Shown: positions 229 to 11,020 of the stretch, piece after piece | How positions within the stretch are numbered: position 1 is the stretch's first letter | How the letters are laid out: the number at the start of each line of letters is the position of its first letter | Source: a plasmid | Strand: one strand, 5' to 3' | Sequence record: NZ_CP060116.1 | Length of the DNA stretch: 11,432 nucleotides | Program-made: the position numbers and the translations under genes | Notes under the pieces: model-generated | What the model saw: only the letters and a program-made list of their open reading frames with translations | What the model was told of the DNA's origin: nothing | Database searches by the model: none

Positions 229-275
229 ATATTGCTTTTGTTTTTCCTGCTTCATCTACTAAAAAGGGGGTGAAG

Positions 276-347
276 TTGTTGAAAAAGTTTTTTTTGCTAG
301 TCTTGATAGTAGTTATATTCTTGCTATTATCTAAAAATGCCTATTAG
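276..347 (+). CDS. Small hydrophobic peptide of about 23-24 aa, (M)LKKFFLLVLIVVIFLLLSKNAY, with a TTG start. Candidate small membrane peptide or type I toxin-like gene.
   Basis: Strong RBS AAAAGGGGG at 261-269, in-frame TTG at 276 and 279, TAG stop at 345-347, terminator immediately downstream. Absent from the ORF track only because of its length and non-ATG start. Confidence 0.35.
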   Translation: MLKKFFLLVLIVVIFLLLSKNAY

Positions 348-540: not shown

Positions 541-1036
541 TTGTCCGTGGAGAGTAGGGACTAGGTGTTTTATGTAGTCCCTTATGTAGTCCCTTTTTTT
601 TTCTTTTGTATACCAATATATTTTTAATACTTTTTTTTATTCAGGGACTAAAAGGACTACTTTTTTAATTGCTTTCATTATATATTATTTTTAGTATTTT
701 TCTTATATATACCAATACTTCTATTATTACTTTGAATTTCAAAGTATATTTTTTTTTCTTTATTTTCAATACTTTTTTAGTTTTTTATATGTGTTTTTTT
801 TTATATATATAGATTTTCTAGTCCCACCAGTCCCTAATAAAAAAAAAACTTTTAATTGCAATGGAAAAAGTAGGGACTAGGTATAGGGACTAGGTAGGGA
901 CTGTATCTTTTTTGACTTCAAAAAAATATATATTAGAATTATGATATTATCAATAGTATAAATCGTTTTTTAATTAGGGACTGTTTTAAAATCGGAAAAA
1001 ATAATTTTCCTCTTTCTTTTACTTCTCCACGGACAC
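541..1036. repeat. Iteron-like repeat field and probable replication origin. About 11 copies of core GGGACTA (TAGGGACTAGG, TATGTAGTCCC x2, AGGGACTAA, GGACTAC and others) in both orientations. It also contains an AT-rich ACCAATA-repeat stretch. The field is bounded by the inverted repeat TCTCCACGGACA (541-552 on the minus strand, 1024-1035 on the plus strand).
   Basis: Direct reading: plus-strand copies at about 557, 645, 873, 887, 899, 977; reverse-complement copies at about 577, 588, 820, 830. Located immediately upstream of the rep operon. Confidence 0.6.
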
Positions 1037-1099
1037 AATAGGGAGAGCGTCAAGAAATATCAAAAAAATGAATTAATGGTATTTAGAATTAAAAAAAAG

Positions 1100-1128
1100 T
1101 TGAAATAATAGACTATATATGTTAAAAT
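1100..1128 (+). promoter_or_regulatory. Candidate promoter for the HTH-helicase-primase operon.
   Basis: TTGAAA, 17 nt, then TGtTAAAAT (extended -10-like), about 35 nt upstream of ATG 1161. Confidence 0.3.
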
Positions 1129-1160
1129 TAATTATCAAATAATAAAGGGGGTAACTGAAA

Positions 1161-1400
1161 ATGCTTGAAACTAATGTAAATACTATTGTTTATAATGCTA
1201 AACTAGGTAGAAAAAGTAAATATAACCTAGCTAAAAATTATCTACTTGAAAAATATTGTAATGATGAAGAAGTTACTATTTCTCAACTAGCAAAAGATTT
1301 AAGGGTAGGATATAGCACAGCTAGAAATTACCTTCTTCGTTTCCTTGATGAAGAACTAAATGTTGTCAATGTTGCAAAGTATTATAATTATAAAAGATAA
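1161..1400 (+). CDS. Small helix-turn-helix DNA-binding protein (79 aa). Candidate replication or copy-control regulator.
   Basis: Strong RBS AAAGGGGG. HTH-like segment VTISQLAKDLRVGYSTARNYL. First gene after the iteron field. Confidence 0.55.
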   Translation: MLETNVNTIVYNAKLGRKSKYNLAKNYLLEKYCNDEEVTISQLAKDLRVGYSTARNYLLRFLDEELNVVNVAKYYNYKR

Positions 1401-1625
1401 AAATATAAAAAAAATTCACTATTGGCACTAGTGAATTTAGAAGATAAAGAAAAAAAAACAATTCCGTTTATGATAGTTTTTTCTTTTGTTGTTCATATTA
1501 TACCACATAGAAAACCACATTTCAAGAAAAATCTGTACTATATATATTATGGCAAAAAAGTTCAAAACTATCGAAAAAATCTTCTGTTTATGTTTTTATC
1601 TATCCAAAAAAGGAGAGATAAAAAA

Positions 1626-3515
1626 ATGAAAAAAATAAAACCATTCCCAAAGTATGAAACACTAGAAAAAGATTTTCCACTTTCTATCAAAACTAAAACT
1701 ACTGTTAAATGGAACAATTTATCGCCATCTAACATCGCTAGATATATAATAAATGCAAAATTGGTAGGCAAGTACATCTATAAAGATTATGCAGAAAAAA
1801 ACGGAGAAGTCTATGAAACAAACAAAGGTATGTTAAAAATTTTTAATGAAGAATATGGTATATTTGTAAATGCAGATAATGTATTAAAAAAAATGATTTT
1901 TGAATTTTTTGAAGATGATGAAACTAAGCAAATTCAGAATTGTTGTAAATTCAGGTATACCAAAAATCCCGATGAAATCATAAAGAAGTTATTACTTCCA
2001 AGCCTGAAATATGAAATTAATAGGGTTTTAGAAAAATTGCATAACCACTGGAACGCAGGATTTGAGAAAGGATTTTTAAGTATTGTTTTTAAAAATGGTA
2101 CTCTATTGATGAATGTAAAAGAGAAAAAATGGCACTTTACAGAAGAAAAAAGTCCACAATTTTTGGCACAAGTTTATTTTAATACAAATTTTTTTCCACT
2201 TATAGCAGAAAAAAGGGAAAATAGACTATTTAATTTTTTAAATTTTAAGCTAGATTTACAAACAAAAGAAAAGCAAGATTTTATCAAAGCCTTGCTATTC
2301 GATTGGTTTTTCATAGAAAATAAAAGTCACCACATAATTTGCTTTGTTGGACGCCATAGCAGTGGAAAAAGTAGTTTTATGGAACATATAAAAACTTTTA
2401 GTAACTTTCATTCTTGGTGCAACAATATAAGTCTTAGCAGTTTGGTAGGGAACAAGTTTTCTGTCCCTGATTGGTTTTACTCGAATAATATATTCTGTAA
2501 TGAAACTAGCGAAAAATACTTCAAAGATAACAGTACATTTAAACTTCTAGTTGCAAAAGAAGTCTTAAGCGTGGAGCAAAAAGGCTTAGATATAGTATTT
2601 TTGAGAGCATTTAGCAAACTTATTTGCTTGGGAGAAGAGCCAATAAAGATAAAATCGGACGGGGGAGTTGACAAAAGAATAATGAACTTCCATTTCTCAG
2701 AGCAACAGTATCTTTTTTCAGAGCGAGAAAGATATGATTATAAAGATTACTTAGAACAAATACAGGAAGAAGATGAAACAGGAAACGACGCATTATTGCA
2801 ATATCTAGCATTCGGAAAATATGAAGACATTACACAAATTTTAATAGAGGGTTTTGAAGAATTTTGCAATAAAAAATACAATGATAACAAAAGAAAATTT
2901 AAAAGTAAATACGAAGAATTATTTGGAGAAGATATGGAAGTATTCGCAAGAATACAAAGTCCATACATCAATGGATATGAAACTTTTTTAGAGGCTTGTC
3001 CAAATTGTTGTGTGCAACTAACAACTTTTTTAAACATCTTAAAAGAATTAGAAGTTGAACAATATATTTCATCAACTGATACTTTAAGGGAGCATATAAA
3101 GAAAATAGATGAAACAATAAGAGATTATAAAAATGTTTATAGAGAATACTATTCTAAAACAAAAAATGTTAAAGTAGCAGTAGAAGAGCGAGGAAATGAA
3201 GATTTTTACACAACTTTGGCAAAAAAGAATAACTACATCTTTGGATTTAGGCTAAGAGAAAAAAAAGAAATTTATGATTTATTATTACAAAAAGTTAAAG
3301 ATACAGAAAAAGTTATTGCAACATATAACAGAATAAGAAGTTGCTTTAAAACTCTAACTGAAGAAAGTTTTAATAATTTGTTTCCACTTGCAACAGTAAC
3401 TAAAATAGAAGTTGCAGAACAACAAACAATAGATTTAGGTACTCCCCACGGACAAAAAGAAAAAACTATTGATGAAATGGAAGAAGAATTAAAAAATTTT
3501 TTTAAGGCAGAGTGA
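1626..3515 (+). CDS. Replication initiator/helicase with a P-loop NTPase fold showing D5/P4-type (SF3) helicase motifs. About 630 aa from ATG 1626. The track ORF starting at 1422 has no RBS.
   Basis: RBS AAAAAGGAGAG 8 nt before ATG 1626. Walker A FVGRHSSGKSSF. Downstream LVAKEVLSVEQKG, FSKLICLGEEPIKI and DGGVDKRIMNFHF resemble the conserved K-L-t-g-g-D, N-x-x-P and RR-finger blocks of the P4-family primase C-terminal helicase domain (compared from memory of that domain's consensus, not searched). Family assignment confidence is lower than the confidence that this is a CDS. Confidence 0.6.
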   Translation: MKKIKPFPKYETLEKDFPLSIKTKTTVKWNNLSPSNIARYIINAKLVGKYIYKDYAEKNGEVYETNKGMLKIFNEEYGIFVNADNVLKKMIFEFFEDDETKQIQNCCKFRYTKNPDEIIKKLLLPSLKYEINRVLEKLHNHWNAGFEKGFLSIVFKNGTLLMNVKEKKWHFTEEKSPQFLAQVYFNTNFFPLIAEKRENRLFNFLNFKLDLQTKEKQDFIKALLFDWFFIENKSHHIICFVGRHSSGKSSFMEHIKTFSNFHSWCNNISLSSLVGNKFSVPDWFYSNNIFCNETSEKYFKDNSTFKLLVAKEVLSVEQKGLDIVFLRAFSKLICLGEEPIKIKSDGGVDKRIMNFHFSEQQYLFSERERYDYKDYLEQIQEEDETGNDALLQYLAFGKYEDITQILIEGFEEFCNKKYNDNKRKFKSKYEELFGEDMEVFARIQSPYINGYETFLEACPNCCVQLTTFLNILKELEVEQYISSTDTLREHIKKIDETIRDYKNVYREYYSKTKNVKVAVEERGNEDFYTTLAKKNNYIFGFRLREKKEIYDLLLQKVKDTEKVIATYNRIRSCFKTLTEESFNNLFPLATVTKIEVAEQQTIDLGTPHGQKEKTIDEMEEELKNFFKAE

Positions 3516-4564
3516 TAAAAATGTCTAATATAAAATCATTAGCCTTTAAAGATAAGCTAGAAAAAATACATAGTTTAGAATATAAAATTTTAAGTTATTA
3601 TGGAGTGGACTTAGACAATTTCTATTGTCCACACTGTAATTCAAAAAGAATGAAACCTTTTAAGAGCAACAAGGGAGAATATCACAAGCTAAAATGTTAT
3701 GGTTGCAGTAGCACCCTTGATATCTTAGACATAGCAAAATTAATGGATAGTAACTTAAAAAATTTTAATCCAGGTGCAGTGGTAGACTATTTATTAAGTT
3801 TAGATTATAGTAATATAGAAAGTGCTTCACAAGTGGAACAAATAAAAAAATCAAAATCGGATCCGTTTTTAATAGATTATGATGAGTTCATAGCAAATAG
3901 TTTAAATAAATTTAATCGTGCAGTAGATACTAAGAATGCAGATGAATTAGAGTACCTTTATAGCAGGGGATATAATAATGAAGATTTAATCTATTTAAAA
4001 AATTTTCTAGGAATAGATGAACATAATAATATTATGTTTGCTTGTAGCAGAGAAAGTTTTATACTTAGACTGTTGAAACCTTGGCACGATAAAAATGGTA
4101 AGGAAATTAGATATAAAAACTCTCCTAGATTAGAAAATACAAGACATTATTGTTACCTGTTAGATACTGTAAATCAAAATAATATTATAAAAAATAACTA
4201 TAATATTTTCATCTTTGAGGGAGGATTTGACACTATAACATTTAGAATTTTATGTAAAAATAAATGCTTATGCTTCGCAACGGGGGGAGCAGATAGCAAC
4301 CATAATTTAATAGCAAATAAGATAAATGATATAGCAGGTAGATTAAATTATAAAGTTAATGTATTCATCTTATTTGATAACGATGAAGCAGGAGAAAATA
4401 ACACAACTTTACTTGCAGAATTATTTAATAAAAACTATATAAATGTATATACTAAAATGTCAAAATTCTTATTCAAAAACAGTAAAGATATAAGCGAAGA
4501 ATTTAAAAATAATCGTGCAGAGTTAGAAATAAGAATAAAATATTTATTAAATAAAATAAGTTAA
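3512..4564 (+). CDS. DnaG-like DNA primase with an N-terminal zinc-binding domain and a TOPRIM domain. The start is GTG 3512, overlapping the upstream stop, or ATG 3521.
   Basis: Zinc finger CPHCNSKRMKPF...YHKLKCYGCSSTLDILD (compare DnaG CPFH..EKTPSF...YHCFGCG). TOPRIM E-G-x-x-D in IFIFEGGFDTITF and D-x-D-x-x-G in FILFDNDEAGEN. Translationally coupled to the helicase gene. Confidence 0.8.
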   Translation: MIKMSNIKSLAFKDKLEKIHSLEYKILSYYGVDLDNFYCPHCNSKRMKPFKSNKGEYHKLKCYGCSSTLDILDIAKLMDSNLKNFNPGAVVDYLLSLDYSNIESASQVEQIKKSKSDPFLIDYDEFIANSLNKFNRAVDTKNADELEYLYSRGYNNEDLIYLKNFLGIDEHNNIMFACSRESFILRLLKPWHDKNGKEIRYKNSPRLENTRHYCYLLDTVNQNNIIKNNYNIFIFEGGFDTITFRILCKNKCLCFATGGADSNHNLIANKINDIAGRLNYKVNVFILFDNDEAGENNTTLLAELFNKNYINVYTKMSKFLFKNSKDISEEFKNNRAELEIRIKYLLNKIS

Positions 4565-4568
4565 AAAA

Positions 4569-4600
4569 TAAGGGGTACTATTATATAGCTACCCCTTTTA
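4569..4600. terminator. Bidirectional rho-independent terminator between convergent genes.
   Basis: AAGGGGTA / TACCCCTT 8-bp stem with T-rich flanks on both strands. Confidence 0.6.
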
Positions 4601-4620
4601 AAATGATTTTAAACGCTATC

Positions 4621-5061
4621 TCAGGCGTTCGTTTTTTCTTCTGTTTTTTCTTCTTCATCAACTTTCTTTTCTTCTTTTATTTCTTTACTTTTATTTTTTA
4701 TATCTTCAAAAGAATTTTTTATTTTTTCTTCAATTTCTTCAAGGAACAGTTTCGCATTTTCTACACTAAGTTTATTCACAGATACATTAATTAATTTTAC
4801 AATTTCTTCAATTTTCAAATCATTTTCGGCTACCTTGGTGAACTTTAAAATCTGAGCAGGAGTTAAGCCAAAGTCCTTATAACTTTTCTTTTTAGCCTTA
4901 TTTTTAGCTTCATTTTTCTTCTCCACGGACTTATTCTTTTCTTCAATAATTTTCTTATAAGCTTCAGTCTTACTATAATTTTCTTGGTCAGGAATATTTA
5001 TTTTTTCTTCTGTATTTTCTTCAACATTTATATTTTTATTTTCTTCAAATTCATTATACAT
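4621..5061 (-). CDS. K/E-rich hypothetical protein (146 aa), probably coiled-coil. Function unknown.
   Basis: RBS AAGGAG 10 nt upstream of ATG on the minus strand. Own promoter, and convergent on the shared terminator. Shares the identical 20-nt stretch AATAAGTCCGTGGAGAAGAA (NKSVEKK) with the relaxase gene. Confidence 0.55.
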   Translation of the reverse strand: MYNEFEENKNINVEENTEEKINIPDQENYSKTEAYKKIIEEKNKSVEKKNEAKNKAKKKSYKDFGLTPAQILKFTKVAENDLKIEEIVKLINVSVNKLSVENAKLFLEEIEEKIKNSFEDIKNKSKEIKEEKKVDEEEKTEEKTNA

Positions 5062-5096
5062 ATTTTTTCATCTCCTTAGTAAGTTATATAATACTT

Positions 5097-5125
5097 ATTG
5101 TATTATATTCCTTAGCTAATGTCAA
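5097..5125 (-). promoter_or_regulatory. Near-consensus sigma-A-type promoter on the minus strand (TTGACA, 17 nt, TACAAT) for the 146-aa gene.
   Basis: Reverse complement of 5096-5125 is ttgacattagctaaggaatataatacaata. About 30-nt leader to the ATG at 5061. Confidence 0.45.
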
Positions 5126-5224
5126 TAAAAAAATATGCTATTTCCCCTTTTAAATCAATATCTTTTTTTAATAAAATATGTTATAATTTATATACAAAAT
5201 AGTACTATATTTATTAAAAGGGGA

Positions 5225-5400
5225 AATAGGCAAGATACTCGCTATACCGTAAACGGTATGCTTTATCTTGCAAAGGGTTGCACCCTTTTGAAACCTGCAT
5301 TGCACTTATACTTCATAAAAGCAGTGCTTTTAATTGTATCGTGCAAGTGGGGAAGTTTTAGCACTCCCCACACCCCTTGCTATTGCGAATTAATGTTTAA
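5225..5400. other. GC-enriched, highly structured element with at least four hairpins. Candidate oriT (the relaxase nick region) or a single-strand initiation site or structured RNA.
   Basis: Nested hairpin GCAAGATA...[ATACCGT aa ACGGTAT]...TATCTTGC at 5230-5271. AAAGGGT tgc ACCCTTT at 5272-5288. GCACT...AGTGC at 5302-5327. GTGGGGA...TCCCCAC at 5347-5371. Lies immediately upstream of the mobC-relaxase operon. The track ORF 5135-5422 over it is judged spurious. Confidence 0.4.
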
Positions 5401-5515
5401 ATTTTTATCGGGACAACGATAAAAATTCAAAATTAACTCGCTAGAAAAAAGCTAAAAATATAACATACTTTGAAGAAAAATTATATATTATTAAGTTTGA
5501 AGAAAGGAGTAGTAA

Positions 5516-5905
5516 ATGTATAGAGAAGAAGTAGAAAAAGTTGAGCCTATCAGGAAGAAAAGAGTAGAATTTCAGGTTGAAGAAGAACTATTAAATTTAT
5601 TAGATATAAGAGCAGATATAAAAGAAATTAGTAGGAGCGAATATATAAGAAATTTAATTTTAAAAGATATAGGAAATATTAATAATAGTATAGATATAGA
5701 CACATTGAAGAAGATAAAAAGGTTAATGGTAGAGTTTAGAAAAATGCGAATAGCATTCACTAAATTAGGAGTAGTTTTTAATCAAGGAATTAAACTATTT
5801 ATTAAAGATAAAAAAGAAGAATTAGAAGCCATAGAAGATGAATTGATTAACTTGCTAGATGAAGAAAAAGAGAAGCTAGAAGATTATAAAAAGTATCTAT
5901 TGTAA
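5516..5905 (+). CDS. mobC: MobC-like relaxosome accessory protein (ribbon-helix-helix N-terminus).
   Basis: RBS AAAGGAG. N-terminus RKKRVEFQVEEELLNLLDIRADIKEISRSEYIRNLIL is RHH-like. KLGVVFNQGIKLFI resembles the MobC family G-N-N-L-N-Q-I-A motif. Directly precedes the relaxase. Confidence 0.65.
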   Translation: MYREEVEKVEPIRKKRVEFQVEEELLNLLDIRADIKEISRSEYIRNLILKDIGNINNSIDIDTLKKIKRLMVEFRKMRIAFTKLGVVFNQGIKLFIKDKKEELEAIEDELINLLDEEKEKLEDYKKYLL

Positions 5906-5914
5906 GGGGGATAT

Positions 5915-7315
5915 ATGCCAATTTTAAAAGCAATAGGAAAAAACAAAGATAAAAAGAAAGGAAGTACCAAGCAAACATTAGCAGGAATGAAAGCAGTATT
6001 AAATTACATAGCAAGAGCAGGGAAAGAAGAACAAATTTATAAAGCTTTTGGAATGGGATTAAGCGATAATGTAGATAAGGCTAATAACACAATAATTTTT
6101 AATAAAAAGACGCACGATAAAGTGGATAGTAACTTATATAAACATTTTGCTTTATCGTTCCCCCCGGGATTTGATAATCTTGAACTAATAGAGAAGATTA
6201 CAAGAGAATTTGTACAAAAAGAATATGTAGATAAAGGCTTTTTGTGTTATGTGGGGATACATATAGATAAAGACCATTACCATAGCCATATTTTAGTTGA
6301 TACAGTGAATTTTAATACAGGTTATAAGCTACATCAATTAGATAATGCAGATATGAAGAAAGCAAGATATAAAGACAAAATTCTTCCTGAACAAGAAATA
6401 TCACTTGAACATTTAAAGGATAGTATGGAAGAAATAGCAATGTCTTATGGAGTAGAAAGCCCTGAGCGAAAAAAGGAAAAGAACAAGAGTATAAACATAG
6501 GAAAAATGGCTAAGTATAAAGGAATAACAAAAGAGAATTCGTGGCGAACTAAGATAGCAAAAAATTTTGAAGATATTGTTTTAAATCTTAATACGACAAT
6601 AGAAAATTTGCAGGATAAGTTAAAAGAAAAAGGTATCTTCTTTAATCGTTTTAATAAAGAAAAAAGAACTCTAACACTAGGTACAATGTACGAGGATAAG
6701 GGGAAGACTAAAAAAGGGTTAGTAAAACTTAGTACACTAGAAGCAGAAGAAGATTATAGATTTCAAGCAACTAAAAATATTTATAATTGGGATAATTTAT
6801 GGAAAGAACTAGACAAGCACAATGTTAAATTATTGGAGCAGGAGAAAGAAAAAAATAACGAAATTAATTTAGAATTAGATTTAGATATTTTTGATGAAAT
6901 AGAAAAAGAAATTAAATTAGAATTAGAAAAAGAAAAGGAACTAACTAAGTCTAAGACAAAGACAAAGACAAAGACATATACTATTGAAGAAGAAAGACAA
7001 ATTGATGAAAATACAAGAATATGGATTGAAAATTACAATAAAAAGCAGGAAATAGAAAAAGAAAATAATAAGTCCGTGGAGAAGAAAGAAGAAAAGCCAA
7101 AAGTTGTTGAGTTAAATGCTATTGAAAAAGCCAAAATAAGCCAACAATTAGCAGAAGAACAAAGATTAAAAGAATTAGAAGCAGAAAAATTAGCAAAGAA
7201 GAAGAAAGCGACTGTAACTGAATGGGTTGATGAGAAAGACCAGTGGGTAGACGAGAAAGATGAGTGGGTTAGTGAGTGGGAAGATGATAAAAATGATTGG
7301 GATTTAAGTAAATAA
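5915..7315 (+). CDS. Mobilization relaxase, MOBP-like (relaxase/mobilisation nuclease domain), with a long K/E-rich low-complexity C-terminal tail.
   Basis: RBS GGGGG. N-terminal motif I with candidate catalytic Tyr in KAVLNYIAR (compare RP4 TraI ELVKYITD). Histidine-triad motif III HIDKDHYHSHILVDTVN (HxDxDHxHxHxxxN). Confidence 0.85.
   Translation: MPILKAIGKNKDKKKGSTKQTLAGMKAVLNYIARAGKEEQIYKAFGMGLSDNVDKANNTIIFNKKTHDKVDSNLYKHFALSFPPGFDNLELIEKITREFVQKEYVDKGFLCYVGIHIDKDHYHSHILVDTVNFNTGYKLHQLDNADMKKARYKDKILPEQEISLEHLKDSMEEIAMSYGVESPERKKEKNKSINIGKMAKYKGITKENSWRTKIAKNFEDIVLNLNTTIENLQDKLKEKGIFFNRFNKEKRTLTLGTMYEDKGKTKKGLVKLSTLEAEEDYRFQATKNIYNWDNLWKELDKHNVKLLEQEKEKNNEINLELDLDIFDEIEKEIKLELEKEKELTKSKTKTKTKTYTIEEERQIDENTRIWIENYNKKQEIEKENNKSVEKKEEKPKVVELNAIEKAKISQQLAEEQRLKELEAEKLAKKKKATVTEWVDEKDQWVDEKDEWVSEWEDDKNDWDLSK
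6953..6976 (+). repeat. Perfect tandem hexanucleotide repeat (AAGACA)x4 inside the relaxase gene, encoding (KT)4.
   Basis: Read directly. In-frame unit, so slippage would change length but not frame. Confidence 0.8.
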
Positions 7316-7325
7316 GGAGCGTAAA

Positions 7326-8591
7326 ATGGAAGAAAACAAGGAGAAATTCTTAGAAAATCTTAAAATAATTGGAACTATTCCAGGTTTATTAAAAAATAAT
7401 ACAGAGCAAATGGCGAAGATAGAAGCAGAATTAAATGATTTTAAAAAAGATATTGGAAAATCTTCATCTGTTATTGCTACTAATTATAGCAAATTAATTG
7501 AATTAAAGGCTTTATTATCCAACCTAAATGAAGAAGAATTAAAAGAGATTACATTAAAATTAACAAATACATTAGAGCCTTTAAAAAAGGATTTAAAAAC
7601 AATAATTTTAAAAGAAATTTTAGTAGATATAGAGCCACAAATAAAAGAAGTGGTATTAAAAGACCTAAAAACTTTAATAACAACTGAATTTATCGAGAGT
7701 ACAAGCAATATAATAAAACAGTATGAAGAAGATTTTAGAGAAAAAATCGAAAGCAGGAGCAACACTATAATTGAAAGTATTGAGAATAACACAAAAAACA
7801 TTGAAATTATGAATAATAATAAAATAAAAATGAAAGAAGATATATTAAATCTTATAAATGCCCTTGGAGAAGATAGAAGCATAAGAACTGATATACTTGA
7901 AAAAGATAGAAATGCAAGAGCAAGAGAAGTACAGAGCATTAAAGATACATCTAGCGAAATCATAAAGAACACTAACGAATATAACTTCTTAAATAGTAGC
8001 GAATTTCATTTCTATAATAATATATCACAGGCTATCCTAGGAGCAGTTTTAACAGTAGCAGGAGCGATTAAGAGATACAATATAATCTTAATCTTAATCT
8101 TATTAGCATATACAGTTTTTAAAGGCTTCATTGCATACAAAGTAGGAACTAAGCAGGATAAGTACAATCTAAAAGCAATAGATGAAGAATTTTTTAATAA
8201 AGTTAAGGACAAAATTGTCTTGCAAGTCCTTTATTTTCTTTCAGGAATTGCTTTAATAATCTGTAATATGATAATTTATGATTTTTTTAACAAAAAAATT
8301 AATATAAATCTATTTAATATAGCATTAATTACAATAGATTTCATTGTTAAATATCAAATTTTGGGAATTTTTATTATTAATCTACTTGGTTTTATACCAT
8401 TTTTAATATTTACAAAAATAGAAAATTCTTTTAAACTTACTTTTAAGGAGCAGGAAACTTACACAGAAGATGAAAAAAGAAAAAAGGAAATAGTTAGCAG
8501 GGGGTTTAAATTTATAGGCTTTCTATTACTTGGAATGTCTATTTTTATATCTATTTATTACTTCGTTCCAACTTTATTTTTAAAGTATTAG
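7326..8591 (+). CDS. Membrane protein (421 aa) with an N-terminal coiled-coil/soluble domain of about 225 aa and four predicted TM helices at the C-terminus. Possibly a MobB-like mobilization accessory protein. Function unknown.
   Basis: RBS TAAGGAG 7 nt upstream, in an operon with the relaxase. Hydrophobic segments AILGAVLTVAGAI..ILILILLAYTVF, VLQVLYFLSGIALIICNMII, LFNIALITIDFIV..ILGIFIINLLGFIPFLIF, FIGFLLLGMSIFISIYYFV. No P-loop motif. Confidence 0.6.
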   Translation: MEENKEKFLENLKIIGTIPGLLKNNTEQMAKIEAELNDFKKDIGKSSSVIATNYSKLIELKALLSNLNEEELKEITLKLTNTLEPLKKDLKTIILKEILVDIEPQIKEVVLKDLKTLITTEFIESTSNIIKQYEEDFREKIESRSNTIIESIENNTKNIEIMNNNKIKMKEDILNLINALGEDRSIRTDILEKDRNARAREVQSIKDTSSEIIKNTNEYNFLNSSEFHFYNNISQAILGAVLTVAGAIKRYNIILILILLAYTVFKGFIAYKVGTKQDKYNLKAIDEEFFNKVKDKIVLQVLYFLSGIALIICNMIIYDFFNKKININLFNIALITIDFIVKYQILGIFIINLLGFIPFLIFTKIENSFKLTFKEQETYTEDEKRKKEIVSRGFKFIGFLLLGMSIFISIYYFVPTLFLKY

Positions 8592-8598
8592 CAACATA

Positions 8599-8627
8599 AG
8601 GCACAATTAAGGTTGTGTCTTTTTTTA
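8599..8627 (+). terminator. Rho-independent terminator of the mob operon.
   Basis: aggcacaa / ttgtgtct stem (one G-U pair), 6-nt loop, T7 run. Confidence 0.6.
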
Positions 8628-8790
8628 CTTAAGGGGAACACCCCTTAACAACCCCCTATTATGCGTCATTATCCCCAGTCCCCCAACGAGCAGGGGAACT
8701 CTTGGGGACACTCGGCGTTGCTAGTTCTTATAGAACACCACTTATGAGCCACCCTTGTTACTTCCTATACAGTCCGTGGGGAAATACTCA
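8628..8790. other. GC-rich structured island in an otherwise AT-rich intergenic region. Candidate ncRNA, single-strand initiation site or recombination/attachment site.
   Basis: Perfect hairpin TTAAGGGG aaca CCCCTTAA at 8629-8648. Multiple C4-5/G4-5 runs (ccccag, tccccc, agggga, tgggga) that could pair. Ends with a fifth copy of the CCACGGAC motif at 8772-8779 on the minus strand. Confidence 0.3.
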
Positions 8791-9166
8791 ATAATTCAGT
8801 TATTAACTTCTTATTTGTAGTATATTAATTATTCATTTTTATTTTATTTTGATATACTAATATTTAAAAATACTTAATTATACAATATCAATACATTTTT
8901 ATTAATATCAATTACTATTTAAGTTCAGTATATAGAATTTATTTTATATTGATATTAAATAATATTTTTTATAGTATACTATAACTATATCTATAACATA
9001 TCATCATAATTTGAGTTCTATTATAGTATTTTATGTATTTAAAAATATTATATTGATTTTAAAATAATTTAAAATTAAAAATTTATTTCAATTTTTGCTA
9101 GAATACCGATTTTACCTTATATTCAATCTTATAGTGTATATATAGTTTATATATAATATATCAGTG

Positions 9167-9182
9167 ATATAGTTATAATATA
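9167..9182 (+). repeat. 16-bp direct repeat ATATAGTTATAATATA, copy 1, inside a TATAGT-rich AT tract.
   Basis: Identical to 10039-10054. Region 9130-9230 carries at least 7 TATAGT(G/T) units. Confidence 0.6.
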
Positions 9183-9256
9183 GTTATATTATAGTGCATT
9201 ATTGATAGTATATATAGTTACAATATAATATTGTTTCTTCCATTTTTTTAATTAAG

Positions 9257-9265
9257 TGGTATAAT
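9257..9265 (+). promoter_or_regulatory. Perfect extended -10 element TGgTATAAT. Candidate promoter of the RHH-protein gene. An alternative TTGACA, 17 nt, ATAAAT lies at 9311-9339.
   Basis: Read directly. Tandem CACTGAT repeats lie just downstream of the predicted start site. Confidence 0.3.
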
Positions 9266-9275
9266 ATAGACATAG

Positions 9276-9307
9276 CACTGATGAACACTGATACAAGATA
9301 CACTATA
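9276..9307 (+). promoter_or_regulatory. Candidate operator. Direct repeats CACTGAT (9276, 9286) and CACTATA (9301), the first two spaced exactly 10 bp apart.
   Basis: aCACTGATgaaCACTGATacaagataCACTATAaaa. Direct repeats on one helical face are typical of RHH repressor operators. Confidence 0.35.
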
Positions 9308-9417
9308 AAATTGACAATAATTTATTATTGGAAATAAATAGAAAAAACTATCATTTTTTATAGTATATGTTATATTAGTATTGCATTTATTTTATAAAAT
9401 ACAAGGGAGGTTTTATT

Positions 9418-10017
9418 ATGAGCGTACATCGTTTGACGCAGGAAAAAATTGACAGTATTAAAAAGAAAATTCAAGACAAAATTGATTTAAAAGAGATTAT
9501 AATTGCACATTTTGGGAATAGCAAACACAGGTTTGATGAATGGTTGAGTAAAAACAGTTCTCATTTTACTGGTGCAGAATTAGATTATTTAAACTTTGTA
9601 ATTGTTATTGATAACAAGGCTTCAGGAGCAGGAGCAAAAGTAAAAGTAAAAGATGAAGAAATGGAAGTAATTCAAGATAAAAAAGAAATTGATATTGAAG
9701 AAAAAAACACTATCTTAACAGTAGCTGTTCCTAACTTAACACAAGTGGCACTAATGAGCAGAAAAGATAGAGAAAACTTCCTATTAAGTAATCAAGTAAT
9801 TGAAAAACTTGTAAATCTATTAAGTAATACAGATATAAAAGACACAAACATAGTAATAAGAGATGAAGCAAGAAACTTAAAAGATTTAAAAATACAGAAT
9901 ATAAGGATATCAGAGCAAATTTATAAAGATTTTGTAAACATCTGTAAAAAACACAACTTAACTATAACAAGTGTAATTAATAGTATGTTCTTAGATTTCA
10001 TCAGTCAACACAAATAA
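9418..10017 (+). CDS. Putative DNA-binding protein (199 aa) with a C-terminal ribbon-helix-helix-like fold. Candidate transcriptional or partition regulator.
   Basis: Strong RBS GGGAGG. C-terminus IRISEQIYKDFVNICKKHNLTITSVINSMFLDFI has a beta-strand/helix/loop/helix pattern like CopG/Arc/omega. Confidence 0.6.
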   Translation: MSVHRLTQEKIDSIKKKIQDKIDLKEIIIAHFGNSKHRFDEWLSKNSSHFTGAELDYLNFVIVIDNKASGAGAKVKVKDEEMEVIQDKKEIDIEEKNTILTVAVPNLTQVALMSRKDRENFLLSNQVIEKLVNLLSNTDIKDTNIVIRDEARNLKDLKIQNIRISEQIYKDFVNICKKHNLTITSVINSMFLDFISQHK

Positions 10018-10387: not shown

Positions 10388-11020
10388 ATGGCAATATATG
10401 GTTATGCAAGAGTTTCGAGGGAAGTGCAAGACTTAACAAGACAATTAAAAGCCTTAACAAGTGTAGGAGTTGAGCCACAAAACATCTTTAAAGATATTGG
10501 AAGTGGGAAAGACTTCAATAGAATAGAGTATCAAAAGCTAGTCAATCAAACTTTAAAAGCAGGAGATACCTTATACATTACATCTATTGACCGACTTGGT
10601 AGAGATATGAAAGCCATAGAGCAAGAATACAAGGTTATAACAGAACTAAGACAATGTAAGTTAATTAGCTTAGATGAGCCTTTTTTATCTTCATCTAATG
10701 ATGAAATTATGAATGAACTCCTAAGACCTATTCTTTTGAAGTTTTTAAGTTGGGTAGCAGAGAGAGAAAGAAAAGAAATGTTGAATAGACAAAAACAAGC
10801 CTACTCATCAATGAAAAAGGACTGGAAAGGACGATTGATAAGTAACAAGACAGGTAAAGTAATTGGACGACCTAAAAAGTATATAGACCTAACCAAAGAC
10901 CAAAGACATAAAGTCGAAGAATGGATTGCAGGAAGTAGAAGTTGTCTATCTGTTGCTAAGGAGTTAGGAATTTCAAGGACTACATTATATAGAATAAGAG
11001 AGGAAGAATATACAGAGTAA
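10388..11020 (+). CDS. Serine recombinase of the resolvase/invertase family (210 aa).
   Basis: N-terminal catalytic motif IYGYARVSREVQD (Ser in RVS). DRLGRD. GRPKK. C-terminal HTH SVAKELGISRTTLYRI. Collinear with Tn3/gamma-delta resolvase. Confidence 0.9.
   Translation: MAIYGYARVSREVQDLTRQLKALTSVGVEPQNIFKDIGSGKDFNRIEYQKLVNQTLKAGDTLYITSIDRLGRDMKAIEQEYKVITELRQCKLISLDEPFLSSSNDEIMNELLRPILLKFLSWVAERERKEMLNRQKQAYSSMKKDWKGRLISNKTGKVIGRPKKYIDLTKDQRHKVEEWIAGSRSCLSVAKELGISRTTLYRIREEEYTE

Follow-up and report, generated by a model that had tools for sequence, protein, structure and literature searches.

We analysed an 11,432-bp stretch of DNA (sequence record NZ_CP060116.1; hereafter the window, by which the whole of this stretch is meant), a complete-looking Fusobacterium plasmid that aligned end to end, at 93% identity, with the complete circular Fusobacterium plasmids pKCOM1001B, pKKCOM1330C and pFh1249-2. 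Its computed GC content was 26.7%, and not the ~24% given in an earlier reading made from the letters alone (the sequence-only reading). Here, we focus on a GC-rich octamer, CCACGGAC, that recurs along the plasmid, and on the gene whose distribution it follows, which encodes a Toprim-domain protein (3512-4564, plus strand; Pfam Toprim_2) identified, by profile comparison, as a DnaG-type primase. Ahead of this gene lie a putative origin core, a small helix-turn-helix (HTH) protein (1161-1400) and a DUF5906 protein (P4-type ‘primase C-terminal’ NTPase; 1422-3515, plus strand, start codon uncertain), which was recognised by Pfam and profile matches and is presumed to be the SF3 replicative helicase/initiator. 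Beyond it follow orf146 (4621-5061, minus strand), a NikA/MobC-like ribbon-helix-helix (RHH) protein (5516-5905), the relaxase (5915-7315), orf421 (7326-8591), orf199 (9418-10017) and a serine recombinase (10388-11020).

The octamer is present in six exact copies, which start at 543 (-), 1027 (+), 3446 (+), 4923 (+), 7072 (-) and 8772 (-). Five of them had been listed in the sequence-only reading, all with exact positions and strands; the sixth (3446-3453, plus strand) had been overlooked, and since it sits in the C-terminal codons of the DUF5906 gene, the copies within coding DNA number three instead of two. Copies 1 and 2 (ori-left, 542-554, minus strand, 5'-ctctCCACGGACa-3'; ori-right, 1023-1035, plus strand, 5'-ttctCCACGGACa-3') are the left and right arms of an inverted pair around iterons; the right one precedes, by ~66 nt, the -35 box of a promoter predicted for the rep operon (1100-1128). 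Copy 3 (pre-primase, 3442-3454, plus strand, 5'-ctccCCACGGACa-3') precedes the primase start by ~60-70 nt and is translated as P-H-G-Q, within the variable tail at the C-terminus of the DUF5906 protein. Copies 4 (4919-4931, plus strand) and 5 (7071-7083, minus strand) run antisense, the former in orf146 (where the gene reads AAG TCC GTG GAG, i.e. K-S-V-E) and the latter in a low-complexity linker of the relaxase gene (again K-S-V-E, through TCC/GTG/GAG). Copy 6 (post-mob, 8771-8783, minus strand) is found at a fixed distance of ~97-100 nt beyond the CCAGTCCCC core of a conserved GC island, which it closes, as had been noticed before. As sense, antisense and intergenic copies are all represented, a link of the motif to the direction of transcription was rejected.

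The GC island itself (~170 nt, 8600-8770, plus strand, downstream of the mob operon) contains nested stems (AAGGGGAACACCCCTT; GTCCCC..GGGGAC) around its conserved core. It is kept in motif-bearing and motif-free mobilisable Fusobacterium plasmids alike (related plasmids are cited here by our L numbers: L025, 7470-7640; L024, L026 and L038), had no match in Rfam, and could be a single-strand-origin-like element or a small RNA. The Rfam scan of the window as a whole returned nothing relevant.

The abundance of the octamer is far beyond chance: 0.01 copies would be expected (an expectation much below one had rightly been claimed), none of 200 dinucleotide-preserving shuffles of the window reached six copies, and under a first-order Markov model (6 copies vs 0.007 expected) it was the top-enriched 8-mer of the window. 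Four of the window copies extend to the 10-mer CTCCACGGAC and two to CCCCACGGAC. The 61 distinct instances collected from related plasmids yielded the logo T(-7)..T(-4) T(-3) C(-2) Y(-1) CCACGGAC W(+8), in which biased flanks (from -7 to +8) enclose an invariant 8-nt core, a pyrimidine tract of 10-12 nt precedes the motif and G is never found at positions -5 to -1. Written with its flanks as a single strand the element is 5'-TCATCTTTCTCCACGGACT-3', and it is best explained as a strand-specific signal of ~13-19 nt, 5'-(TCAT)YTTTCY-CCACGGAC-W-3'. A hairpin reading was rejected, given that no conserved secondary structure surrounds the six copies and the motif is mostly unpaired. A literature search for the motif string returned only unrelated primer/oligonucleotide matches, and no paper was found on Fusobacterium plasmid primases or on the motif.

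The motif is under very strong selection acting on the DNA and not on the encoded protein, which lends strong support to the idea, already voiced in the sequence-only reading, of a recognition motif under selection. Across 14 complete related plasmids 67 perfect copies stand against one single-mismatch copy (the 8-nt core being invariant in 67/68), and the motif stays exact although the primases of the two clades that accompany it (clades A and B) are only ~41% identical to each other. The coding copies are written in rare codons: TCC accounts for 3 of the 145 Ser codons of the plasmid, and two of those three fall in motif copies, while GTG and GAG make up 12% of the Val and 18% of the Glu codons, respectively. 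In orf146 as in the relaxase, TCC-GTG-GAG supplies the last three residues of K-S-V-E, and the DUF5906 copy uses CCC-CAC (P-H) within an otherwise variable tail. On the motif-free L024, the homologues of the relaxase (57% identical) and of orf146 lack the motif at the aligned position, and the motif-free L024 and L025 share the GC island, their sequence diverging exactly at the position that the motif occupies in clade A/B plasmids.

In the 14 complete clade A/B plasmids, where the motif and its positions are kept, the density is 0.34 copies per kb (67 copies in 194 kb). The chromosomes of F. polymorphum, F. pseudoperiodonticum and F. animalis yielded no copy in 68 kb (a small sample of ~68 kb of flanks, and not whole chromosomes), where ~23 would be expected at the plasmid rate, and neither did 91 kb belonging to other plasmids of Fusobacterium; the chromosome sample almost lacks even the shorter words CCACGG and CGGAC. 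These counts, in which the other plasmids come from the same hosts, speak against the proposal that the motif is a host-level signal accumulated by plasmids (such as a DnaA box, a methylation target, a DNA uptake sequence or the Chi site of AddAB/RecBCD). It recurs about as densely as uptake sequences do (1 per 2-3.5 kb), its orientation relative to replication matches that of Chi in E. coli, and TTCTCCACG resembles the DnaA box TTATCCACA at 7/9 positions; against this, the origin holds no DnaA box with <=1 mismatch, the invariant GGAC lies outside the box, and no motif copy figures among the TTATCCACA matches with <=1 mismatch, so that the DnaA box was discarded. Chi, FtsK-orienting polar sequences (KOPS) and uptake sequences were likewise set aside, as the over-representation in the chromosome that they entail, with hundreds to thousands of copies in the case of uptake sequences, contrasts with 0 copies in 68 kb. 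We consider a host-level signal highly improbable, and the Chi-like or host-factor site suggested in the sequence-only reading finds no backing in any of the three species.

Among the window genes, only the Toprim gene tracks the motif in a presence/absence table of the window and 15 other plasmids; this gene was missing from the list of candidates drawn up in the sequence-only reading. The candidates that were on it fared as follows. The RHH/MobC protein (and the relaxase) have homologues on the motif-free L024 and L025, and the HTH protein has no blastp homologue on the motif-bearing L026 and none annotated on L038, two plasmids from which DUF5906 is missing as well. No partition gene was present among the Pfam matches of the window proteins, and the sites are dispersed and polar, and not clustered, which speaks against a partition-protein site. 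The serine recombinase deserves a closer look, since the pairs 543/1027 and 4923/7072 might be crossover sites at the ends of invertible segments; flipping the 4923/7072 segment would exchange the C-termini between the relaxase and orf146. The longest inverted repeat of the window does lie there (4909-4943 / 7059-7093; 35 nt, 91% complementary), both of its arms encode N-K-S-V-E-K-K in the same frame, and an inversion would keep the frames open. Yet recombinase homologues occur on 16/16 plasmids compared, including all five without the motif; no copy adjoins the recombinase gene (the nearest distances run from ~0.95 kb for copy 1, with the window end taken as the circle junction, to 1.6 kb for copy 6); the motif lacks the dyad symmetry of res/hix-type sites; gene order is constant, with no inverted isoforms among the related plasmids examined; and most clade A/B plasmids do without the relaxase and orf146 copies. 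A recombinase site is, on this evidence, hardly credible. By presence and absence, the recombinase, relaxase, MobC and HTH proteins were all rejected as partners of the motif.

The association with the Toprim gene follows clades. Every plasmid with a clade A (79-100% identical to the protein of the window) or clade B (41-47%) Toprim protein carries 4-8 copies of the motif. It is absent from plasmids that have other replication proteins and no Toprim gene (L008, L009, L027, L024), from those with a clade C/C' Toprim and no plasmid helicase (L025, L054-L056), from those with a clade D Toprim (L047-L050), and from those with a D-like one (the second replicon of L055, and L058-L060). Natural exchanges between backbones (which are only ~30% identical in the compared cases) separate the primase from the rest of the replicon: the DUF5906 backbone has the motif when paired with Toprim A or B and lacks it when paired with a D-like Toprim (L055, L058, L059), and the Rep3 plus DnaB-like helicase backbone has it with Toprim B (L026, L038) and lacks it with Toprim D; the combination of Rep3/RepB with Toprim C is motif-free too. 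Although DUF5906 belongs to the replicon, it is not what determines the motif, because the motif is also found on Rep3 + DnaB plasmids without DUF5906 and is absent from a DUF5906 replicon with another primase clade. Judging from these distributions, the motif, which accompanies the primase on two unrelated backbones, is tied to one primase lineage.

The motif-linked Toprim proteins (clades A and B) have 347-381 aa; that of the window combines a zinc-binding domain (CxHC...CxxC) with a Toprim RNA-polymerase domain and partially matches TIGR01391 dnaG (E 1.4e-7). A family profile, built from the protein of the window and cluster representatives and compared with solved structures, aligned with Aquifex DnaG (2au3, E 2.9e-11) across both the zinc-binding and polymerase domains, and also with the T7 gp4 primase (8e-10), other DnaG polymerase domains and T4 gp61, but not with archaeo-eukaryotic primases. 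Invariant residues include the zinc ligands C36/C59/C62 and the acidic motifs of Toprim (E233-G234-x-x-D237 and D286-x-D288). The family is very small, 1.84 billion proteins having yielded no more than 15 cluster representatives at E <= 1e-3; it occurs in PLSDB on 17 Fusobacterium plasmids and one uncultured record, and had no relatives in scans of genome contigs (with the protein as well as with its alignment) or of viral contigs. The assignment to DnaG leans on the sequence profiles, because the fold model was poor and the search made with it uninformative.

The putative origin core (556-985), assigned because of its iterons, its AT-richness and its position upstream of the rep genes, is filled by TAGGGACT/AGTCCCTA iterons in both orientations and by AT-rich stretches. 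It lies between copies 1 and 2, and the sequence-only remark that two copies (543, minus; 1027, plus) bracket the origin was accurate. In L004 the same motif pair surrounds different iterons (TATGGAGT), and in L026 the copies at 620 (-) and 735 (+) bracket a 115-bp AT-rich stretch that adjoins three 22-bp iterons, an arrangement repeated in L038. As the same pair accompanies different iterons, around them in the window and L004 and beside them in L026 and L038, we conclude that the iterons change with the initiator while the motif is constant. The motif was rejected as an iteron, for its copies are scattered, stand on either side of the iterons and read alike with DUF5906 and Rep3 initiators, and the repeats that do cluster at the origin are TAGGGACT or TATGGAGT; what motif and iterons have in common is that they are short repeats associated with a plasmid origin.

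With the primase gene set on the plus strand, every plasmid shows the same four copies: ori-left (-), whose homologue is present in 14/14 complete clade A/B plasmids, ori-right (+), pre-primase (+) and post-mob (-). On all clade A/B plasmids the Toprim start is preceded, at 20-70 nt, by a copy, which is coding in the window, L004 and L006 and intergenic in L023, L026, L028 and L036-L038. Some plasmids hold extra copies in orf146 (+), the relaxase (-) or a Fic-DMT accessory region (-), the first two of these being lacking from most. Overall, 66/67 copies are polar: in the half-circle right of the origin midpoint they occupy the plus strand, and in the left half the minus strand. We stress that the strand polarity around the origin is suggestive rather than conclusive, as the test rests on ~10 site classes with one exception (P ~0.02). 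Replication direction could not be read from GC skew, which is uninformative because nearly all window genes sit on one strand; if replication proceeds bidirectionally from the iteron region, CCACGGAC would always be placed on the lagging-strand template.

This polarity, which switches at the origin and opposite it, together with a dispersal at kilobase spacing, could also be expected of a polar signal for the replication fork or for a translocase (helicase pausing or unloading, a Ter-like barrier, or a KOPS-like guide) that a factor other than the primase would recognise and that would be tied to the primase only indirectly, by common ancestry of the replicon module. However, the motif persists over two unrelated helicase types (SF3-like DUF5906 and DnaB-like) and two initiator types, no window gene but Toprim tracks it, a host factor is unlikely in view of the chromosome sample, and barriers placed beside the origin would block the forks of the plasmid itself. 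We regard a fork or translocase signal as improbable. Like Chi, KOPS and SpoIIIE recognition sequences (SRS), the motif is a GC-rich 8-mer that is over-represented and changes orientation at the origin and at the point opposite. Those signals, however, extend over the host chromosome and are read by host enzymes, whereas neither the sampled chromosome nor other plasmids of the same hosts contain the motif.

We reason that the motif may act as a long linear priming or loading signal for the plasmid’s own DnaG-type primase (clades A/B), in a manner comparable to the ssiA/ssiB sites of RSF1010, and assign to this reading a probability of about 45%. The binding of primase to the motif, the strand that is read, the start of the primer and bidirectional theta replication are points that we infer. 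The scheme would begin with the initiator (DUF5906, or Rep3 in the sister plasmids) melting the iteron/AT-rich origin and the plasmid helicase widening the bubble, by which both flanking copies would become single-stranded. Since both copies read 5'->3' outward from the origin on their own strands, primers templated by them would be directed inward and, after crossing the origin, would be extended as the two leading strands. The predicted primer, 5'-pppGUCCGUGG-RRRR... (5'-GUCCGUGG followed by purines), would have about normal primer length and, in a plasmid of 27% GC, 75% GC over its first eight nt. The lagging-strand template is the strand that is tracked by DnaB-type helicases and used by DnaG-type primases. 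The remaining copies, which would be found on it if replication is bidirectional, may be favoured, at intervals of 1.5-7 kb, for starting Okazaki fragments or for loading primase. The copy immediately before the primase gene would link signal and enzyme genetically and may allow autoregulation. With the opposite strand assignment, the template may instead be 5'-GTCCGTGG-3', which starts with a T7-type GTC, and the primers would point outward.

Several observations weigh against a priming signal. DnaG-type primases characterised so far read trinucleotides (CTG in E. coli, GTC for T7 gp4), and to our knowledge an invariant 8-mer within a longer signal would be unprecedented for this class of enzyme. 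Most primases have no specificity or recognise only triplets (PMC8567376). The AlphaFold2 model of the protein was poor (predicted local distance difference test, pLDDT, 54.7) and gave no significant Foldseek match against the PDB. Many plasmids have only four copies, with gaps of 5-7 kb; lagging-strand synthesis could then start at the motif alone only with very long Okazaki fragments, with replication by strand displacement or with help from the host DnaG. The ~10 site classes behind the polarity are not independent, and their sole violation is a copy in a recombinase allele (codons S-T-D; CCACGGAC at L002 10910, L039 11079 and L040 2270). Clades C, C', D and D-like work without CCACGGAC, and in the D-like clade both origin-flanking copies of the local element are on the same strand, which misfits the simple model. 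Finally, the pre-primase position fits a regulatory operator equally well.

Such an operator or anchoring site, bound as double-stranded DNA or as mRNA by the Toprim protein or its complex, would set primase dosage by way of the copy ahead of the gene, and recruit or park the replisome at the origin, without being a template for primers. It would predict the same association with Toprim clades A and B, it agrees with the copy that always precedes the primase start (in clade B beside the ribosome-binding site) and with the placement by clades D and D-like of their own element at the same spot, and a low copy number (four) fits regulation better than lagging-strand priming. It leaves unexplained the antisense copies in the relaxase and orf146, the post-mob copy and the strand polarity, and an asymmetric site of ~13 nt without dyad symmetry would be unusual for an operator on double-stranded DNA. 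The ori-right copy is not over the promoter, and an operator overlapping the rep promoter in particular is unsupported, given the ~66 nt that separate that copy from the -35 box. All considered, an operator or anchor seems to us rather unlikely.

The closest parallel to a priming signal comes from IncQ plasmids: the RSF1010 primase RepB' requires ssiA and ssiB, which are present once each, on complementary strands, at an iteron/AT-rich oriV (PMC8567376). The motif-bearing Fusobacterium plasmids too encode a primase that co-occurs with the putative signal, two copies of which are on complementary strands at an iteron/AT-rich origin, and L026 and L038 have the same triad of initiator, DnaB-like helicase and primase, for which RSF1010 has RepC, RepA and RepB'. 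The enzymes differ, as RepB' is of the archaeo-eukaryotic type while the Fusobacterium primase is of the DnaG type by its profile (DnaG, T7 gp4, T4 gp61), and so do the sites, for ssiA/ssiB are 40-nt hairpins occurring once each and the motif is linear, with an invariant 8-nt core and 4-8 dispersed copies. With the trinucleotide sites of DnaG enzymes the motif would share the enzyme class (zinc-binding plus Toprim), the inferred lagging-strand template and a complement that begins with GTC. Known recognition sites of DnaG-type primases have 3-5 nt and occur everywhere by chance, whereas the motif has 8 invariant and ~13-19 biased nt and would be met by chance ~0.01 times per plasmid.

Sister primase clades have elements of their own at comparable places. 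Clade D plasmids contain exactly two CCGAC-N2-3-GTCGG palindromes, one non-coding upstream of rep and one directly before the ribosome-binding site of the primase gene (in L047 at 465-476 and 3996-4008). In the D-like clade, CAACTCCCCC(C)AGC..GCTGGG flanks the iterons and is again found just before the primase gene (the element CAACTCCCCCAGC..GCTGGG of L058, at 166, 2714 and 9715). Clades C/C' (L025, L054-L056), which encode no helicase, had clustered iterons only and no substitute dispersed motif. These sister elements have few copies, and the pattern amounts to a partial co-variation, in which a clade-specific GC-rich element is common to the origin region and the region upstream of the primase gene in three primase clades (A/B counted together). 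A separate word, CAGTTGCA, was seen on clade D plasmids in 5-6 copies on one strand only (0.16 expected), namely at 2411, 6479, 7558, 9669 and 9703 in L047 and six times in L050; two of the copies are 34 bp apart in non-coding DNA.

Tentatively, we put forward a broader proposal, which we consider possible but doubtful: this small, isolated family of plasmid DnaG-type primases may have evolved long private priming codes that co-evolve with the primase clade (T-T-C-Y-CCACGGAC-W in A/B, the CCGAC..GTCGG palindrome in D, and CAACTCCCCCAGC..GCTGGG in D-like). The A/B code would be written as an inverted pair flanking the origin plus dispersed copies on the lagging-strand template, some of them forced into coding sequence with rare codons. 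If such codes were real, priming would be programmed by sequence and insulated from the host primase, a hairpin-free, whole-replicon counterpart of the IncQ ssi sites in the DnaG class.

Should the primase read the motif, it would be the first of the DnaG type to recognise a sequence much longer than a trinucleotide, primer-start positions would be written into the replicon and readable from its sequence, and a simple system would be at hand for the study of how a zinc-binding domain reads template DNA. It would also offer a handle for Fusobacterium vectors (a minimal replicon would need the origin-flanking copies and the cognate primase) and suggest a basis for incompatibility or insulation among co-resident plasmids with different primase clades. 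Even if the motif turned out to serve loading or regulation, its strict match to the primase clade is a clean and testable case of protein-DNA specificity in a clinically relevant genus.

Some further features of the window and its relatives were noted in passing. A 25-aa hydrophobic open reading frame (ORF; MKLLKKFFLLVLIVVIFLLLSKNAY, 270-347, plus strand) with a strong ribosome-binding site lies between terminator-like hairpins (judged by eye) and belongs to a ~390-bp module (1-395) shared, at 96% identity, with pFN3-type plasmids that are otherwise unrelated; L055 has a similar peptide (translation read by eye), and the module looks like a type I toxin-antitoxin or small membrane peptide cassette. 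The word AGCAGGAG occurs seven times, always on the plus strand (4387, 4855, 6837, 7752, 8057, 9627 and 10558; 0.12 expected under a first-order model), mostly within coding sequence and often read as GCA-GGA-G codons, and its abundance may be a simple purine-rich codon bias. Several metagenome scaffolds (L013, L014, L045, L051-L053, L010 and L042) join two Fusobacterium plasmids, or a plasmid and chromosomal DNA (in L042 a Val-tRNA synthetase gene stands next to the origin, and in L010 the plasmid is at the end of a 231-kb contig), and these may be cointegrates, integrations or assembly chimeras. Upstream of orf199, the non-coding stretch 8800-9400 is extremely AT-rich (16-19% GC), with many TATAGT/ATATAG-type repeats and an inverted repeat (8975-9004 / 9153-9182), and may represent a res site, an array of promoters or a further unwinding region.

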